Source of the DNA: Pseudomonas phage LUZ100
Reading direction: 5' to 3' (one strand)
Length of the DNA: 37,343 nucleotides
Sequence record: OP329100.1
The first letter of the stretch is position 1. Each line of letters begins with the position of its first letter. The notes below the pieces were generated by a model that saw only the letters and a program-made list of their open reading frames with translations, made no database searches and was not told the origin of the DNA. Below are positions 1,936 through 37,343 of this stretch, in pieces. The position numbers were made by a program, and so were the translations under genes.

Positions 1936-2320
1936 TCTCCCTGGAGGATGCGCTGGACATCGGGGTGATCGTTCTCCTGATAGGCGTGACCGTGTTTTTC
2001 GTGAGCATCACTTAGGAGTAACTCGGTCTGGAATCGTCTGTCGTCGAGGCGGTACAGGGCGAAAGGAACTCGCAGGGCAAGACGTACTAGAGAGGCAGAC
2101 GCCCGAAGTCTGCTAAGTGCATAAGTTACAAGGGTTATACGAGAAGATGTACATCAGTTTTTGCTCTCCCCAAATCTTCGGAAAGCGGTGCTTTTTTGAG
2201 TTCGATAGTAATTCACGTCCGCAACAGATGCTAGACTGGATTGTCGAACCGAATGATGTTTTACTGTGGGTGTGGAGGTTCCACATCGTCATATCCAAAG
2301 AAACTAGGAGGTAACAAACC

Positions 2321-2650
2321 ATGGCTCTGACAGCTCTCGCAGTGATCGAGGAAGTACTCAAGCGGTTCCGCGACTTCGATCAGGAGATGCAGACTGCCCA
2401 GACATTCATCGCGGTCGCTATGCAGCCCGGCATCACCATGAAGGAGCTATCGGAGAAGGTTGGCATTTCTCAAGCGTCCTGCAGCCGCAACGTCTCGGCC
2501 CTGTCCCGAGTTCACCGGCTGAACAAGCCAGGGATGGATCTGGTTGTGGCTGCAGAAGACCCGATGGAACGCCGCCGTAAGGTAGTCAAGCTGACCCCGA
2601 AAGGGCAGCGCCTTGCCGAGACACTGACCCAACTGATCGAGGAGAAGTAA
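2321..2650 (+). CDS. MarR-family winged-helix transcriptional regulator (109 aa)
   Basis: RBS ctaggaggtaacaaaccATG; motif ELSEKVGISQASCSRNVSAL...ERRRKVVKLTPKGQRL typical of the MarR HTH and wing; lies just upstream of the integrase. Confidence 0.6.
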   Translation: MALTALAVIEEVLKRFRDFDQEMQTAQTFIAVAMQPGITMKELSEKVGISQASCSRNVSALSRVHRLNKPGMDLVVAAEDPMERRRKVVKLTPKGQRLAETLTQLIEEK

Positions 2651-2657
2651 CAGAGGT

Positions 2658-2743
2658 TGGTGCTCGGAGCGGGACTCGAACCCGCAAGACCGTAGGTCGG
2701 AGCATTTTAAGTGCTCTGTGTCTACCAATTTCACCATCCGAGC
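2658..2743 (-). tRNA. tRNA-Leu (anticodon TAA), 86 nt with long variable arm; likely attP core
   Basis: Minus-strand read GCTCGGATGGTGAAATTGGTAGACACAGAGCACTTAAAATGCTCCGACCTACGGTCTTGCGGGTTCGAGTCCCGCTCCGAGCACCA folds with a 7-bp acceptor stem, 3-bp D stem, anticodon loop CTTAAAA, 5-bp T stem GCGGG/CCCGC and CCA. Confidence 0.8.
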
Positions 2744-2755
2744 GAGGAGATACCC

Positions 2756-3829
2756 ATGCCGGTAAAGCCAAGAGGTCGTGGCTTTGAGGCCACAGTTAAC
2801 CACCAAGGGGGGAAGTACCGGAGGCAATTCACAACCCAGGTCGAAGCCGAAGCCTGGGAGAAGGCGACCAAAGCCGCCCTGATGAGGGGCGAGATGGTAT
2901 CAGAAACAACCAACTCTGCCAACGGAAATCCTAGCACTCTCAAGGAGTTGGCTGACTTAACTTACAAGCGATTCTGGCAAGGGCGCCCTGGAGGAGAAAC
3001 GGCCCTACGAAACGCAAAGCAGTGCATCAATATCCTCGGTGAGGGGATGTCCCCAGGCTCAGTAAACGAACAGCGCATCGACGACATGGTGTTCGCCCTA
3101 GAGCAGCTCGGGCTGTTCGACAGTACGATCAACCGCAAGCTCTCCGCTTTGTCCAAGATGCTGACCTTCGCCTATGAGCGGGGCTACATCAGCCGCAAGC
3201 CGAAGATCGAACGCAAGAAAGAACCCCAGAACCGCATCCGCTACTTCGACGAAGCAGAGGAGCAGCTCATCCTGGGAGCCTTCACCCACTTCGGGATGCT
3301 CGACATGGTCGACTTCTGCATCGTTGCAATCGACACCGGTATGCGGGTCGGTGAGATTCTGCGGATCGAAGACCGGGACGTAGCCAATGGGCTGGTGTCC
3401 GTGTGGCGCACGAAGAACGGTAAGGCAAGATCCATCCCGATGACGAAGCGCGTGGCTGAGGTATTGGAACGCCGCTTCAAGGAGGAGCGTCGCCGGATGA
3501 ACACCATCGGCAACGTGAAAGCCTTTGAGGGGTGGAACCACAGCAAGATCCGCACGCTGTGGGATCGAGTGCGCCGTCACCTGAAACTCATGACCGACCC
3601 GCAGTTCGTACCCCATGCAATGCGGCACACCTTCTGCTCCCGGCTGGTTCAGCGTGGAGTGGACATCGTGACGGTCTCGAAGCTGGCCGGTCACAGCTCC
3701 ATCGTAGTCACCATGCGGTACGCTCACCTCGCTCCCGATAGTCTGGCCCATGCCATTCGGAAGCTGGAAGAACCCGCAAAAGATGTAAATCCCCAAGCTC
3801 GACACACGACACAAGTTGTGTCGCGGTAG
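2756..3829 (+). CDS. int: Tyrosine-type site-specific integrase
   Basis: RBS gaggagataccc-ATG at 2756; C-terminal catalytic motifs HAMRHTFCSRLVQRGVDIVTVSKLAGHSSIVVTMRYAHL (H-x-x-R...H...Y); the ORF-track extension from 2711 would overlap the tRNA. Confidence 0.85.
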   Translation: MPVKPRGRGFEATVNHQGGKYRRQFTTQVEAEAWEKATKAALMRGEMVSETTNSANGNPSTLKELADLTYKRFWQGRPGGETALRNAKQCINILGEGMSPGSVNEQRIDDMVFALEQLGLFDSTINRKLSALSKMLTFAYERGYISRKPKIERKKEPQNRIRYFDEAEEQLILGAFTHFGMLDMVDFCIVAIDTGMRVGEILRIEDRDVANGLVSVWRTKNGKARSIPMTKRVAEVLERRFKEERRRMNTIGNVKAFEGWNHSKIRTLWDRVRRHLKLMTDPQFVPHAMRHTFCSRLVQRGVDIVTVSKLAGHSSIVVTMRYAHLAPDSLAHAIRKLEEPAKDVNPQARHTTQVVSR

Positions 3830-3960
3830 TGTCGAGAGCCGTGTTTGATGCGGTAGTGGAAAGGTTGAACATCAATAAAATCAACCACTTACGCTACGCA
3901 TAGTCTCCTGCAACAGACTTAAAAGGTCTTGCATCCGACTATCCACTGGCACATTGAATA

Positions 3961-3988
3961 ACCCGGCATCGTCCGGGTTTTCTTTTCC
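3961..3988 (+). terminator. Rho-independent terminator after int
   Basis: acccgg-catcgt-ccgggt stem-loop followed by tttctttt. Confidence 0.6.
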
Positions 3989-4019
3989 CATCAACTATCC
4001 ACTGTCGCAACCTTTGCAG

Positions 4020-4052
4020 ACCGCTCGACACAGGACACGAGCGGTTTGTGTC
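4020..4052 (+). terminator. Second hairpin (8-bp stem accgctcg/cgagcggt) with a weak T-tract, terminator or processing site
   Basis: Perfect 8-bp inverted repeat with 10-nt loop, then ttgtgtcg. Confidence 0.35.
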
Positions 4053-4080
4053 GTCACGGCTCTCTGACGCCCTGCTTGGC

Positions 4081-4103
4081 AATTACCACACAGTCTTGGA
4101 GCA
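4081..4103 (+). promoter_or_regulatory. Phage RNAP promoter, family A copy 1 (AATTACCACACAGTCTT|GGAGCA), upstream of the RNAP gene
   Basis: Matches the 7-copy family A consensus; resembles K11/T7/T3 promoters (AATTA at -17..-13, CACA at -9..-6, purine-rich GGA start). Confidence 0.6.
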
Positions 4104-4160
4104 CCGAGAGGTGACCTCCGAGGCCGGTTCCTTAAAGCCAAACTCAGAGAGATCCAATAG

Positions 4161-6686
4161 ATGACTTCCATCATCACCAACCAACTGATTCAGGAAATTG
4201 AGAACAACCAAGAGTGGCAAGAGAAGTTCGACCGTCAGGTAGAACTTGAGGAGAAGATGCGAGGTATGGGCGTCGACCGTCACTGGTCGGAGGTAGCCAA
4301 GGCCAGGGAGCGTGGTCAGGAAACCAGCGTCCGCTCCGTCCGCCGACTGATGAACTCGTCAGTCGCCAAGATCGCAGAAGGCATCCGCCAGTTCATCGAG
4401 AGCTGCGAGTCCGGCAAGGCTGGCCGCAAGCACAGCGCATACCCACTGCTCAAGCAGATCGAACCCGAGTCCGCAGCCCTGATCACCGCACGGGTGGTAC
4501 TGGATGGCGTGGCCAAGGGTGACCTGCTGGTTCCCCTGGCTCGCCGCGTTGCGTCCCTGATCGAGGACGAGCTGGCCTTCCGTGAGTTCGCCAAGGCGGA
4601 CAAGAAGACCTACGACTGGCTGGTCAAGCGCGAGAAGCGAGTCAACGGCAGCAGCTACCGCCGCCAGCGGCTGACCATGCTGCACAACATGGAGGCCCGC
4701 AACATCGCATGGCAGGAGTGGACTGCCCGCGAGTCCCTGCTGGTCGGCTCCAAGCTGATCGAGATCATGACCGAGACCACCGGCCTGATCCAGAAAGTCA
4801 CCCGCACCGTGGATGTGAAGCGCCAGGAGGTAGCCATCGAGGCCACCCCTGAGACCATCGCCTGGATCAACGAGGAGAACAACCGCTGCGAAGCTCTCTC
4901 CCCGGTGTACCTGCCCACCATCATCCCGCCTCGCCCCTGGACTTCACCGTTCGAGGGCGGCTACTGGACTCCGCGTGTCCGCCGACTGGCCCTGGTCAAG
5001 ACCCACTCGAAGGGGTACTTGGAGGAGCTGGCCGAACACGACATGCCGGAAGTCTACGATGCGATCAACGCCATGCAGCACACCGCCTGGGCCATCAATG
5101 GCCGGGTGCTGGAGGTGGTTCGCAACCTGTGGAACAACGGTGCCACTCTGGGTGGTATCCCTGCGGCTGACGATCTGCCGCTCCCGCCGAAGCCCCTGTT
5201 CCTTGAGCAGGAGCTGCCCCGCGAGGAGTGGTCGGAGGATCAGGTGCGCCAGTTCAAGGAGTGGAAGCGCGAGGCAACCGACACCTATGCGTCCAACGCG
5301 AAGCTGAAGTCCCTGCGTCTGCAGTTCGCCAAGGTGTTGATGATTGCCGAGATGTTCGAGCATGAGGAGGAAATCTACTTCCCGCACCAGTTCGACTTCC
5401 GTGGCCGGGCCTACGCTGTGCCGATGTTCCTGAACCCCCAAGGCAGCGACATCGCCAAGGGTCTGCTGGAGTTCGCCAATGCGGTAGCGATCAACGACGA
5501 GGAAGGTGCCAACTGGCTGGCCATCCACGGTGCCAACAGCTACGGCTACGACAAGGTCTCCCTGGCCGAGCGTGTGCGCTGGGTGCAGGAGAACGAGGGC
5601 GAGATCCTGGCCTGTGCTGCTGACCCGTACAGCCACAGCATGTGGGCCAAGGCCGACAAACCGTTCCAGTTCCTGGCGTTCTGCATCGAGTGGGCAGAGT
5701 TCAAGCGCGAGGGCTACGGCTACCTGTCGACCCTGCCCATCGCAATGGACGGTAGCTGCAACGGGCTGCAGAACTTCTCGGCCATGCTGCGTGATGCCAT
5801 CGGCGGCGAGGCCGTGAACCTCGTGCCCCAGGAGAAACCGGCGGACATCTACCAGAAGGTGGCCGACCGTGTGGTGCTGCGTGTCGAGGCTGATGCCATC
5901 GGCCAGGACGAGGAGCTGGCGAAGCTGGCCCAGGGCTGGCTCAAGCACGGCATCAACCGCAAGGTGTGCAAGCGCCCGGTGATGACCCTGGCCTACGGCG
6001 CCAAGGAGTTCGGCTTCAAGACCCAGGTGTTCGAGGACACCGTCATGCCGTACAAGCTGAAGGCTGGCAAGGAGTTCCCCTGGGAAGGCTCCGGCTGGGC
6101 TGCCGCTGAGTACATGGGCAAGCTGATCTGGGAGTGTGTCGGTGAGGTGGTGGTCGCTGCTCGTCAGGCTATGGACTGGCTGCAGAAGGCTGCGCGTCTG
6201 GCCGCGAAGGAAGGACTGCCGGTGCGCTGGAACACCCCGGACAATCTGGTCGTGCTCCAGGCGTACCCGAAGATGCTGACCGAGCGCATCGACCTGACCT
6301 TCGGGGGCAGCCGTCACCTGCTCACCGTGGCAGTCAGCCCGACCACCGAGCTGGATCGCAACAAGCAAGCCAACGGGATCAGCCCGAACTGGGTTCACTC
6401 GATGGACGCCAGCCACATGCGGGCCACTGTCCGCCGCTGCTGGAACGAGGGGATGCGCAGCTTCTCCCTGATCCACGACAGCTACGGCACCCACGCCGGG
6501 AACGCCTGGGCCTTGGCCAAGTTCCTGCGGGAGGAGTTCGTCATCATGTACGAGGAGGATGTGCTGGAAGACTTCAAGCGAGAACTGGAGCGGCAGCTCC
6601 CCGAAGGATCGGTGCTCGATCCGCTACCCCCGAAGGGCAACCTGAACTTGGCTCTGGTGCTGGAGTCCGCGTTCTTTTTTGCCTGA
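4161..6686 (+). CDS. T7-like single-subunit DNA-dependent RNA polymerase (841 aa)
   Basis: Collinear with T7 gene 1 product: PRPWTSPFEGGYWTPRVRRLALVKTHSK, DMPEVYDAINAMQHTAW, FPHQFDFRGRAYA, AMDGSCNGLQNFSAML, HDSYGTH, C-terminus PKGNLNLALVLESAFFFA. Confidence 0.95.
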   Translation: MTSIITNQLIQEIENNQEWQEKFDRQVELEEKMRGMGVDRHWSEVAKARERGQETSVRSVRRLMNSSVAKIAEGIRQFIESCESGKAGRKHSAYPLLKQIEPESAALITARVVLDGVAKGDLLVPLARRVASLIEDELAFREFAKADKKTYDWLVKREKRVNGSSYRRQRLTMLHNMEARNIAWQEWTARESLLVGSKLIEIMTETTGLIQKVTRTVDVKRQEVAIEATPETIAWINEENNRCEALSPVYLPTIIPPRPWTSPFEGGYWTPRVRRLALVKTHSKGYLEELAEHDMPEVYDAINAMQHTAWAINGRVLEVVRNLWNNGATLGGIPAADDLPLPPKPLFLEQELPREEWSEDQVRQFKEWKREATDTYASNAKLKSLRLQFAKVLMIAEMFEHEEEIYFPHQFDFRGRAYAVPMFLNPQGSDIAKGLLEFANAVAINDEEGANWLAIHGANSYGYDKVSLAERVRWVQENEGEILACAADPYSHSMWAKADKPFQFLAFCIEWAEFKREGYGYLSTLPIAMDGSCNGLQNFSAMLRDAIGGEAVNLVPQEKPADIYQKVADRVVLRVEADAIGQDEELAKLAQGWLKHGINRKVCKRPVMTLAYGAKEFGFKTQVFEDTVMPYKLKAGKEFPWEGSGWAAAEYMGKLIWECVGEVVVAARQAMDWLQKAARLAAKEGLPVRWNTPDNLVVLQAYPKMLTERIDLTFGGSRHLLTVAVSPTTELDRNKQANGISPNWVHSMDASHMRATVRRCWNEGMRSFSLIHDSYGTHAGNAWALAKFLREEFVIMYEEDVLEDFKRELERQLPEGSVLDPLPPKGNLNLALVLESAFFFA

Positions 6687-6736
6687 TACAATCCACTAGC
6701 GCATAGGTTGCGCATGTGTAACGTCGAGCCAGGCGG

Positions 6737-6964: not shown

Positions 6965-7010
6965 CTATCCACAAACGCATTTAACCCACGACAACTGTGA
7001 GGACAACTGA

Positions 7011-7667
7011 ATGACCGACAAGAAAGCCCGCAACCCCCGTTACGTCACCCAGGTTGGTGTTGCCATCTACCCGCACCTCGTTGAGCCGGACACCAAGTTC
7101 AACGCCGAGGGCGAGTACAAGGTGAAGCTGCGCCTGTCCCCGGACTCGGTAATCACCGACGCCAAGGGCAAGCGTGTTGCTGACGTGCAGAGCTTCATCG
7201 ACGAGATGATGGGCAAAGCCCTGGAGAAGGCGCAGCAGGAGAACAAGGGCAAGATCAAGGAGGCCGATGCGCCCTACGAGATCGACGACGAGACCGGCGA
7301 AGTGCTGGTCAACTTCAAGCTGAAGGCCACCGGCAAGACCCGCGATGGCAAGGAGTTCACCCAGAAGCCCGCGCTGTTCGACGCCAAGGGCAAGCCCGCT
7401 GAGGTCAAGGGTGTCTGGGGCGGCAGCAAGATCAAGGTTTCGTTCGAGGTCGTGCCGTTCTACACCAAGCTGATCGGTGCCGGTGTCTCGCTACGCCTCA
7501 AGGCCGTGCAGATCATCGAGCTGGTAGCCGGTGGCAACGGCGGTTCCGCTGACAGCTACGGCTTCGGTGAGGAAGAAGGCTTCGAGGCTGAGGACGAAGC
7601 AGCCGACAACGGGTTCAGCTCCGACGACGAAGGCGGCTCCGCACCGGCTGACGACGAGGACTTCTGA
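7011..7667 (+). CDS. ssDNA-binding protein, T7 gp2.5-like (218 aa)
   Basis: Position after RNAP; acidic C-terminal tail ending ...ADDEDF (terminal Phe as in gp2.5); RBS gagga. Confidence 0.75.
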   Translation: MTDKKARNPRYVTQVGVAIYPHLVEPDTKFNAEGEYKVKLRLSPDSVITDAKGKRVADVQSFIDEMMGKALEKAQQENKGKIKEADAPYEIDDETGEVLVNFKLKATGKTRDGKEFTQKPALFDAKGKPAEVKGVWGGSKIKVSFEVVPFYTKLIGAGVSLRLKAVQIIELVAGGNGGSADSYGFGEEEGFEAEDEAADNGFSSDDEGGSAPADDEDF

Positions 7668-11568: not shown

Positions 11569-11590
11569 CTATCCACTAGCGCATAGGTAC
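11567..11590 (+). promoter_or_regulatory. B element copy 7 (AACTATCCACTAGCGCATAGGTAC), 18 bp upstream of the DNAP start
   Basis: One of 9 copies of the ACTATCCACYAGCGCATAGG family; function unresolved (see findings). Confidence 0.4.
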
Positions 11591-20638: not shown

Positions 20639-20830
20639 CAAGATCGTTCTCCGATCTCTCCTGTTGGTTGGTACTTCGGGGCTGGCTTCATGTCGGCCTC
20701 GCTTTTTCCCAGGATTCCATCGCCCCCAAGCCTCTGGCCGGGTTCCCCGTCACCCGCGTATCTAAGGCCACGCTCAAATCGTGGGGCCGCTAGGCAGCTT
20801 GCTCCGTCTGCCGAATCACGGAGCTTTCAC

Positions 20831-20906
20831 TGGCATGTAGCTCAGATGGTAGAGCACCCGGCTGTTAACCGGGCGGTCGCAGGTTCGAGTCCTGCCGTGC
20901 CAGCCA
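20831..20906 (+). tRNA. tRNA-Asn (anticodon GTT), 76 nt
   Basis: TGGCATGTAGCTCAGATGGTAGAGCACCCGGCTGTTAACCGGGCGGTCGCAGGTTCGAGTCCTGCCGTGCCAGCCA: cloverleaf with 7-bp acceptor stem (one G-U), anticodon loop CTGTTAA, T-loop TTCGAGT, CCA end. Confidence 0.85.
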
Positions 20907-21191
20907 AATCCCATAGAGAAGGAGGTGATCCTGTATCTCCGGGTGCAGCTACGGAAACTGCACAAGCCCTAGCACGTCGGGAGACGTTACTGGGCAACCC
21001 CTACCTCGAACGACGAGTGCCTCAAGTCGCACTGGCAGCAAAGCCGGTGACTTAGCACCCAAAGCATTTCATGCACGAGCCTCGGCCCAACTGGCCCACC
21101 TGCGGGTGGAGCCGGAAGGACAACCTTGTGCGCAGCGCGTGGATGGCTGCTGGGAGCAACCCACTCTCATCAATCGTTCACGAGGTAACAA

Positions 21192-22146: not shown

Positions 22147-22168
22147 CAACTATCCACCATCGCATAGG
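22147..22168 (+). promoter_or_regulatory. B element copy 8 (AACTATCCACCATCGCATAGGA), between capsid stop and gp11 RBS
   Basis: Member of the 9-copy B family. Confidence 0.4.
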
Positions 22169-34510: not shown

Positions 34511-34532
34511 CAATCCACCAGTGCATAGGTAC
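34511..34532 (+). promoter_or_regulatory. B element copy 9 (CAATCCACCAGTGCATAGGTAC) upstream of the HNH and terminase genes
   Basis: Member of the B family. Confidence 0.4.
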
Positions 34533-37099: not shown

Positions 37100-37343
37100 T
37101 GGCCCTGGAGTTCCCCCCGGTGGGGTGGGCACCTGGTCTGCGAATCGAGGCCGGTGCCGGGGGCTGCCGGTGCTGGTCGGGGGGCTGGCGACACAAGCCA
37201 CGACACAAGATGCCCGCCAAGCCGCGCCGTTGCTGGGCTTGCGAGAGATTAGGAATCCATCGGCCTATCTAGTGGGCGCGCTACCGGGGCAATCCTGGGG
37301 CTTTCCTGGGCGTTCTAGTGGGCTGGCCTGGGGCTTGGCCTTG
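37100..37343. repeat. Right direct terminal repeat (DTR)
   Basis: Exact copy of bases 1-244. Confidence 0.9.

Follow-up and report, generated by a model that had tools for sequence, protein, structure and literature searches.

Split-and-replace integration at the host tRNA-Leu(UAA) gene as the probable mode of lysogeny of the T7-like Pseudomonas phage LUZ100

Tyrosine integrases of P4, P22, HP1 and genomic islands cross over in the anticodon loop of a tRNA gene and use the symmetric anticodon stem as a core-type site. The phage attachment site (attP) of the P4, P22 and HP1 type contains all of the tRNA gene 3' of the crossover, and integration restores the gene and displaces a fragment. Another arrangement has been described for T7-like pelagiphages by Zhao et al., who placed attP between the integrase gene (int) and the RNA polymerase (RNAP) gene in all 12 pelagiphages (bioRxiv 10.1101/410191). 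Sequencing and polymerase chain reaction (PCR) located the integration of pelagiphages HTVC119P and HTVC200P in the middle of tRNA-Leu(TAA), a gene that "could not be complemented", and the tRNA-Leu upstream of int in the phage "is likely used instead" (bioRxiv 10.1101/410191). Here we analyze the lysogeny cassette of Pseudomonas phage LUZ100, a complete T7-like genome of 37,343 bp, all of which constitutes the analyzed window. In this cassette a gene for a MarR-like regulator, a complete tRNA-Leu(UAA) gene and a tyrosine integrase gene stand in a row ahead of the RNAP gene. The cassette is orthologous to the HTVC119P/HTVC200P-type temperate T7-like cassette. With a probability of roughly 0.78, we propose that the integrase (Int) uses an attP located after int, that the host tRNA-Leu(UAA) gene is split, and that the carried tRNA replaces the split gene.

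LUZ100 and the two pelagiphages (Votkovvirus) have the same succession of MarR regulator, antisense tRNA-Leu(taa), int, attP and RNAP, and the identical 14-nt CAACAGACTTAAAA is located on the + strand of the int-RNAP spacer in all three. The regulators are 47-48% identical and the Int proteins 32-33% identical. HTVC119P and HTVC200P infect SAR11 and have AT-rich genomes, which accounts for the low nucleotide similarity to LUZ100 outside the core. The properties of the split-and-replace type (HTVC119P, HTVC200P, HTVC019P and HTVC025P) are seen in LUZ100 as an internal cut in the host gene, no rebuilding of that gene, and a complete tRNA with the same anticodon. The evidence for the LUZ100 type comes from natural prophages, whereas that for the pelagiphages comes from junction PCR, and the use of the phage tRNA is presumed in both. 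The cyanophages P-SSP7 and S-TIP37 also resemble LUZ100, with int upstream of RNAP, attP downstream of int, and the bacterial attachment site (attB) in a host tRNA-Leu; integration was detectable, and stable lysogens were not obtained (PMC8776855). However, the cyanophage attP is an exact match to the tRNA-Leu region (42 bp in P-SSP7; Sullivan 2005, Shitrit et al. 2021, PMC8776855), compared to 9-11 bp in LUZ100. In addition, no carried full-length tRNA-Leu is described in Sullivan 2005 or PMC8776855, whereas LUZ100 carries the whole tRNA. The attP of LUZ100 is without a tRNA 3' segment, unlike the regenerating attP of the P4, P22, HP1 and P-SSP7 type.

LUZ100 was published as a P. aeruginosa phage with 61% GC, two tRNAs and 244-bp direct terminal repeats, and 78 Pseudomonas genomes were reported to contain prophages related to it (Putzeys et al. 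2023, mSystems; PMC10134795). The paper places the tRNA-Leu directly 5' of the integrase and explains it by imprecise excision. It names neither attP nor attB (the word "attP" occurs 0 times) and offers missing integration sites as one reason for failed LUZ100 lysogens (PMC10134795). The regulator (2321-2650, + strand, 109 aa), the tRNA-Leu(UAA) gene (2658-2743, - strand) and the integrase (2756-3829, + strand, 357 aa) are closely packed: 7 nt separate the regulator stop from the tRNA 3' end, and 12 nt separate the tRNA 5' end from the ATG of int. The T7-type RNAP gene (4161-6686, + strand, from the open reading frame (ORF) list) is the first gene beyond attP, on the side opposite from int. 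The gene order regulator, integrase and RNAP closes the early region, as in the temperate T7-like cassettes of the HTVC019P/Pasto/RHEph01 type.

The attP of LUZ100 is in the int-RNAP spacer, with its core CAACAGACTTAAAA at 3911-3924 (+ strand); recombination does not take place in the tRNA gene (2658-2743). The core mimics the 5' strand of the anticodon stem and the anticodon loop of tRNA-Leu(UAA). Lysogens were located through exact integrase look-ups. Nine int-side junctions were compared: L013 (P. qingdaonensis), L014 and L011 (P. kilonensis), L152 (P. aeruginosa), the metagenomic loci L151, L153 and L154, and L148 and L149. In all nine, homology of the prophage to LUZ100 ends at 3924, ~95 bp past the int stop. 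Beyond this point, the local tRNA-Leu(UAA) 3' half begins from the anticodon loop on in L013, L014, L011, L152, L151, L153 and L154; in the P. aeruginosa locus L152 this host 3' half, TCCCTCGGGGGTAACCCCGTGCCGGTTCGACCCCGGCTCCGGGCACCA, precedes the lecA lectin gene. At the four RNAP-side junctions (L022 and L016-L018), the host tRNA-Leu 5' half ends in GACTTAAAA and is joined to the phage sequence GGTCTTGCATCC, after which come the intrinsic terminator T4 (3960-3986, + strand), the phage-RNAP promoter phi1 (4082-4109, + strand) and the RNAP gene. A tRNA-Cys precedes the host 5' half in L016 and L022, and L022 and L011 are on the same isolate-derived contig. The crossover point falls within GACTTAAAA (3916-3924). 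An imperfect palindrome around the core, ATAGTCtccTGCAA ... TTGCAtccGACTAT (3900-3942, inverted repeat I3), resembles an anticodon stem-loop and can potentially provide the core-type binding sites of Int.

The order in every integrated copy fetched is terminase, one terminal repeat, early genes, regulator, antisense tRNA-Leu, int and host DNA. In LUZ100 the left terminal repeat (1-244) has an exact copy at 37100-37343, and its presence as a single copy in the prophages is as predicted from circularization. The integrase is 99% identical on a 994-kb P. qingdaonensis contig, 87% identical in P. kilonensis, and >90% identical in P. aeruginosa, P. putida, Stutzerimonas and Metapseudomonas. Prophages whose Int is 87-99% identical sit integrated at the predicted site, and relatives of the RNAP in IMG/VR at 96-99% identity include prophage left ends. 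Near-identical prophages are present in P. aeruginosa assemblies, with GCA_031733975.1 as an example of a natural lysogen. The attB is thus the anticodon loop of the host tRNA-Leu(UAA), which is present in P. aeruginosa and used by natural lysogens. Integration of LUZ100 itself is predicted to give the junctions ...CAGACTTAAAA joined to TCCCTCGG... and ...GGGACTTAAAA joined to GGTCTTGC....

It should be mentioned that two of the loci are more complex at the int side. In L149 (P. aeruginosa GCA_036541575.1, 7162-7824), and also in L148, a second unrelated element follows the LUZ100-type prophage and replaces the host 3' half. The second element in L149 has its own junction, GACTTAAAA joined to TTACCTGTG, another MarR-like ORF, and a complete + strand tRNA-Leu(taa) (7274-7358) with a sequence that is not the host's. 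Two different elements, each with a spare tRNA, appear to be stacked here at one anticodon-loop site. Another side observation comes from CALUCI01, a metagenome-assembled genome of an uncultured Pseudomonas (L121, L141), in which one contig starts exactly at GACTTAAAATCTG..., the attP/attB core, and another contig ends with an intact tRNA-Leu(UAA). Such a pattern would be expected from a mix of lysogens and non-lysogens, or from an assembly break at the integration site.

Integration interrupts the host tRNA-Leu(UAA) gene within the anticodon loop, with its 5' half left at the RNAP end and its 3' half at the int end of the prophage. The length shared between phage and attB is 11 bp in the putida group and 9 bp in P. 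kilonensis and P. aeruginosa. The phage sequence to the right of the core is GGTCTTGCATCCGACTATCC followed by the terminator, and the sequence to the left of the core is not from a tRNA. With no more than 9-11 bp in common and no tRNA-like phage DNA on either side of the core, recombination of the attP core with the anticodon loop splits the host gene in two, and neither half is rebuilt into a tRNA. ARAGORN found no tRNA at any attL or attR of the prophages examined. A LUZ100 lysogen was also simulated for P. putida QH1 from an 8-kb host locus and the prophage, and ARAGORN called a single tRNA-Leu(taa) in it, the phage copy. Within the natural loci compared, the antisense phage copy is likewise the one tRNA-Leu(UAA) that is intact at or close to the integration site.

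To evaluate the copy number of the target, one genome per species (GTDB representatives) was scanned for exact matches to the 3'-terminal 28 nt of the putida-group tRNA-Leu(UAA). The scan returned 111 stretches, 109 of them intact genes, at one per assembly in ~107 putida-group assemblies including four complete chromosomes; only two metagenome bins had two contigs with the 28-nt match in one assembly. There was no LUZ100-type lysogen among the 111 matches. The target tRNA-Leu(UAA) is single-copy as far as this exact-match scan reaches. By the established decoding rules, tRNA-Leu(UAA) is the sole reader of UUA. The antisense phage tRNA-Leu(UAA) would then be the lysogen's only UUA reader. Its presence would make integration into a single-copy tRNA gene tolerable, and the lysogen would come to depend on the phage tRNA. 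A contrasting element is found at the same tRNA gene in Pseudomonas sp. 10-1B (L133), in which a displaced tRNA-Leu(UAA) 3' fragment (TCTGTCGGCGTG...CACCA) follows non-tRNA DNA and an intact tRNA-Leu(taa) is present ~2 kb from the fragment (1749-1833 of the oriented locus). The island at this locus is of the classical kind that regenerates the tRNA, in contrast to the LUZ100 type.

The carried tRNA-Leu(UAA) is antisense to all phage genes. Both ARAGORN and Rfam identify it as complete, with a full-length Rfam tRNA match of 57.2 bits (gathering score 29, E 6e-10), a class II cloverleaf with long variable arm, the A73 discriminator and an encoded CCA. It is kept inside every prophage and in all close relatives. 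In an alignment of 12 carried tRNA-Leu genes (LUZ100 and 11 relatives), all 236 of 236 pair-cells of the cloverleaf are paired and compensatory double changes occur in 18 of the 24 pairs, a result matched by 0 of 500 shuffles. The covariation thus marks the carried gene as a selected, functional-looking tRNA. Its identity to host tRNA-Leu(UAA) genes is 76-79%, and its T-arm is identical to that of the putida-group hosts. This tRNA would presumably be expressed and charged in the lysogen. A candidate sigma-70-type promoter for it, TTGGCA-17-TGaTACCAT (2894-2922, - strand), is located ~145 nt upstream of the tRNA 5' end. It is noted that this is the sole promoter-like match in 2200-4200, a yield no more than the chance expectation, and that both hexamers are conserved among relatives and the spacer is variable.

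Comparison of relatives reveals that the carried anticodon and the attP core change together. The carried anticodon is TAA and the core is CTTAAAA in LUZ100 as well as in HTVC119P and HTVC200P. In RHEph01 they are TAG and TTTAGGT, and the IMG/VR relative L024, with carried anticodon CAA, has GATTCAAAA (TCAAAA) at the position homologous to the LUZ100 core. Lysogens of more distant relatives show the split host tRNA with the same anticodon as the carried tRNA: in a Thioalkalivibrio prophage (L155, Int 49% identical, carried taa) the host 3' half starts with ACTTAAAA, and in a Litchfieldella prophage (L157, Int 43% identical, carried tag) it starts with GGATTTAGGTTCC. The carried tRNA is antisense between regulator and int in LUZ100, RHEph01, L024, Thioalkalivibrio and Litchfieldella. 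Its position and orientation are kept in alpha- and gammaproteobacterial phages with integrases that are 32-49% identical.

Two of the related phage genomes deserve separate mention. In RHEph01 (L004, NC_047738), ARAGORN detects a complete tRNA-Leu(tag) at 2900-2984 on the minus strand, between the "transcriptional regulator" gp08 and the integrase, that is unannotated in the RefSeq record; the TTTAGGT loop mimic is in the int-RNAP spacer at ~4130 of L004. In Limnohabitans phage YIMV22061 (L005, 4252-4379, minus strand), a complete tRNA-Leu(taa) is located between int and RNAP, with a second copy of the core, ACAGACTTAAAAGAC, just 3' of the tRNA and also on the minus strand. The att site of YIMV22061 is inverted relative to LUZ100 and has the spare tRNA beside it, as described for pelagiphage HTVC011P.

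We have considered three other explanations for the carried tRNA. A preliminary description of this locus had proposed the full-length tRNA-Leu as a possible attP identity segment in the classic int-attP arrangement; recombination with the host tRNA-Leu would then give hybrid tRNAs at both ends. The idea has some appeal, as tRNA genes are common att sites, the phage tRNA abuts int, its anticodon loop holds ACTTAAAA (8 nt of the core), and the Limnohabitans phage has a full tRNA-Leu in the int-RNAP spacer, the normal location of attP. However, regulator, tRNA and int are contiguous and internal in all lysogens examined, the crossover is downstream of int (3914-3924) with junctions at 3916-3924, and the attP holds an anticodon-loop mimic only, with no regeneration of the tRNA. 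Relative to the host gene into which the prophage is inserted, the phage tRNA is also on the other strand. The near-identity to host tRNA-Leu that had been expected over its 3' half is restricted to the T-arm, and the overall identity is 76-79%. The positions of the junctions refute such a role of the tRNA for natural prophages, and we regard it as extremely unlikely for LUZ100. What did hold from the preliminary description is that this is the lysogeny module of a temperate-type T7-like phage targeting a tRNA-Leu gene: the tRNA is full length rather than a 3' fragment, the integrase looks intact, and the search for integrated prophages in bacterial genomes that it had suggested found them inserted at tRNA-Leu(UAA) with a single terminal repeat.

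The imprecise excision suggested in PMC10134795 would make the tRNA-Leu a passive remnant that is functionless now. The T-arm identity between the phage tRNA and putida-group hosts could be read in this way, as could the resemblance of the Litchfieldella prophage tRNA to its host tRNA, with which it shares the unusual T-loop GTTCAAGTC. Because these Litchfieldella tRNAs are alike, a host origin of the tRNA gene is plausible. A host origin, however, also fits a replacement tRNA, and it is the lack of function that does not. Imprecise excision would take DNA beside attL or attR in the host orientation, whereas the actual gene is complete, on the far side of int and on the opposite strand. In addition, its position and orientation are conserved across integrases of only 32-49% identity, its cloverleaf is kept via compensatory changes, and its anticodon tracks the attP core, so that we consider a functionless remnant very unlikely. 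An ordinary phage tRNA that aids in reading rare UUA/UUG codons during lytic growth, with its place beside int incidental, would be a third explanation. There are 13 TTA codons among the 11,339 codons of the phage (1.15 per thousand), 3 of them in the tail-fibre gene, against 0 in a 3,080-codon host sample, and the phage has in addition a tRNA-Asn unrelated to integration. But the phage itself uses UUA less than any other Leu codon (13 of its 950 Leu codons), and the linkage to int, the antisense orientation and the anticodon match to the split tRNA are left unexplained. Codon aid as the reason for the gene is thus unlikely, although it could be a secondary benefit. Replacement of the destroyed gene is the most economical reading of the carried tRNA.

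Several observations weigh against the split-and-replace interpretation of the LUZ100 cassette. Stable LUZ100 lysogens have never been obtained in the laboratory, and no antisense transcription start site (TSS) near the tRNA-Leu is reported in the LUZ100 transcriptome (PMC10134795). Similarly, no promoter immediately upstream of the antisense tRNA-Leu was found in the scan of 2200-4200. The single-copy status of the target comes from an exact-match scan of putida-group species representatives, and help with the few UUA codons of the phage in lytic growth is possible. There is also no carried tRNA in Bordetella BB8, Ralstonia DU_RP_I, roseophage CRP-118 and an Endozoicomonas prophage, which belong to the same integrase lineage. 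Since some relatives are without the tRNA, the carried tRNA is not obligatory for this integrase lineage. The Endozoicomonas prophage (L156) shows neither a carried tRNA nor a tRNA remnant and is uninformative for the mechanism.

The novelty implied by the preliminary description is not borne out. The module was already known for LUZ100 (PMC10134795), the MarR-int cassette has been described for several temperate T7-like phages, the layout with the tRNA upstream of int was analyzed experimentally in the pelagiphages, and the split-and-replace mechanism is already published for these orthologous phages (bioRxiv 10.1101/410191). Compared to the literature consulted, what appears to be new is an explicit map of attP and attB for Pseudomonas phages of the LUZ100 type, the existence of a P. 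aeruginosa attB that is used by natural lysogens, and the fact that anticodon and core also covary in phages of Pseudomonas, Thioalkalivibrio, Halomonadaceae and Rhizobium. The strategy of splitting the tRNA and bringing one's own is found in these phages as well as in pelagiphages, and the established general picture of temperate T7-like phages is unchanged. The tRNA beside int should be viewed as a conserved, selected part of the cassette and not as debris of imprecise excision, which corrects the literature on this point. Because attB is a conserved tRNA gene used by natural P. aeruginosa lysogens, a missing integration site is an unlikely cause of the failed lysogens. With attP and attB mapped, junction PCR can directly test the integration of LUZ100. 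LUZ100 infects P. aeruginosa, and its temperate potential therefore matters in the screening of therapy phages.

The integrase is 100% identical to LUZ100 Int UXY92547.1 (P0124). It matches Pfam Phage_integrase PF00589 with 89.6 bits (cut-off 27.1, E 2.6e-25) and PHROG 1 "integrase" with 5e-55. An alignment with 5c6k and 4a8e places the motifs TGMRVGE, the KNGKARSIP hairpin, HAMRH, GHSS and MRYAH at the corresponding conserved stretches, and matches to the solved recombinases 1a0p (XerD) and 1aih (HP1 Int) were also obtained. By reading of this alignment, the catalytic R, K, H-x-x-R, H and Y can be assigned to these motifs, in agreement with the catalytic motifs of a tyrosine integrase noticed in the preliminary description, and the protein looks intact. 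The start of int is the ATG at 2756 in all database homologues; the GTG at 2711 given by the ORF finder would overlap the tRNA. A stretch from the tRNA 5' end through ~55 nt of int (2756-2810, ~18 codons) is near-invariant, synonymous positions included, when compared with L013, L014, L009, L010, L012, L149 and L152, which are divergent elsewhere in int. This suggests an extra constraint on the int 5' stretch, possibly from tRNA 5' leader and processing signals or from translation-initiation signals.

The regulator is 100% identical to the LUZ100 "transcriptional regulator" P0157 and matches PHROG 9665 "transcriptional regulator" with 2e-30. The MarR-like label of the preliminary description stands for the fold and less so for the sequence: the regulator scores 23.8 bits against Pfam MarR_2, under the gathering score of 27, and only the generic HTH_24 is passed, with 28.4 bits (cut-off 21.9). 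A precomputed PF12802 match is present in many of its close homologues, and its best PDB sequence match is PcaV with an E value of 0.005. An AlphaFold (AF2) model built on 48 homologues, with a predicted local distance difference test (pLDDT) score of 89.9, has the elements H5-19, H21-34, H40-47, H51-61, E75-79, E87-91 and H93-107 in the MarR topology of a winged helix-turn-helix between N- and C-terminal helices. All of the top 50 PDB matches of this model in Foldseek are MarR-family or MarR-like (MarR, PcaV, MexR, MepR and SlyA; probability 1.0, TM ~0.6); the regulator has 109 aa, fewer than the 135-150 aa found in these structures. Judged by the model, it is a short MarR-fold protein, and by sequence it is marginally MarR. 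It is 31-63% identical to the int-upstream regulators of RHEph01, HTVC019P/119P/200P, and the Thioalkalivibrio and Litchfieldella prophages. By analogy with the published model, the MarR-like protein is probably the lysogeny repressor. All three genes of the module were found in the T7-like genome where the preliminary description had placed them.

The motif TATCCACNNNCGCA is over-represented in LUZ100, with 9 genome copies compared to 0.4 expected and an extended consensus of AACTATCCACyAGCGCATAGGT. The copies are at 377-390, 578-591, 3849-3862 (- strand), 3940-3953, 3996-4009, 6690-6703, 6966-6979, 11570-11583 and 22151-22164, and a variant is found at 34512. Three of them surround the attP core and T4: the inverted copy at 3849-3862 is to the left of the core, the copy at 3940-3953 (+ strand) is 16 nt to the right of the core, and the copy at 3996-4009 (+ strand) is just past T4. 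Further copies are just 3' of the RNAP, helicase and capsid genes. The motif is also inside the spacer and -10 region of both P1 and P2, the strong early sigma-70 promoters (367-606, + strand, repeat family D5) described for LUZ100 (PMC10134795), in which TATCCACCAGCGCA is located between each -35 and -10. Prophage relatives have the motif at the same places. The motif may be an operator of the MarR-like repressor, or else a set of arm sites of Int. It was also considered as a mapped TSS or transcription termination site (TTS), but it is absent from the 11 TSSs and 22 TTS termination points of PMC10134795 and merely flanks T4 and T16. The motif is a point of distinction from Agrobacterium phage Pasto (Boeckman et al. 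2022), which is presented in PMC10134795 as temperate and T7-like with a MarR-based switch and has an integrase 33.7% identical to LUZ100 Int.

Carried anticodons TAA, TAG and CAA all occur among these phages. Leucyl-tRNA synthetase ignores the anticodon. One may speculate, as a tentative proposal that we consider rather doubtful, that the cassette is a prophage-addiction and tRNA target-switching device in which TATCCACNNNCGCA serves as the MarR-like operator. If addiction is true, any loss of the prophage other than by precise Int-mediated excision would be lethal, with the sole UUA reader gone. If target switching is true, one anticodon change together with a matching core change would move the lineage between tRNA-Leu isoacceptors. 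If the operator role is true, it would tie the silencing of early transcription to control over the attP/T4/RNAP junction.

Terminator T4 was identified by the terminator scan and is listed in Table S5 of PMC10134795, which describes it as a strong terminator after int. It is conserved at the attL of L016-L018 and L022. Because T4 sits directly behind the host tRNA 5' half in the lysogen, it could insulate the phage RNAP gene by blocking read-through from the host tRNA promoter. The promoter phi1 upstream of the RNAP gene belongs to repeat family D2, which makes up the repeated phage promoters of the genome (7 copies), and a phage-specific promoter directly 5' of RNAP has been described for LUZ100 (PMC10134795). 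The MarR-like regulator and integrase are co-transcribed from the host promoter P3 (PMC10134795). A + strand transcript 3' end, T3 (~2563, range 2504-2603), is inside the MarR-like gene (PMC10134795), ~95 nt short of the antisense tRNA-Leu 3' end, and could result from interference by convergent tRNA transcription.

When the first 12 kb were compared with annotated phages by megablast, the only matches were patchy ones of ~73% (Limnohabitans phage and RHEph01). The second phage tRNA, tRNA-Asn(gtt) (20831-20906, + strand, 71 bits with Rfam), has a phage promoter (20617) on one side and the major capsid gene on the other. No anticodon-loop mimic for tRNA-Asn is seen in the int-RNAP spacer. The tRNA-Asn(gtt) gene is flanked by the termination sites T14 and T15 of PMC10134795, and a 121-aa ORF that overlaps it (20690-21055) is probably spurious.

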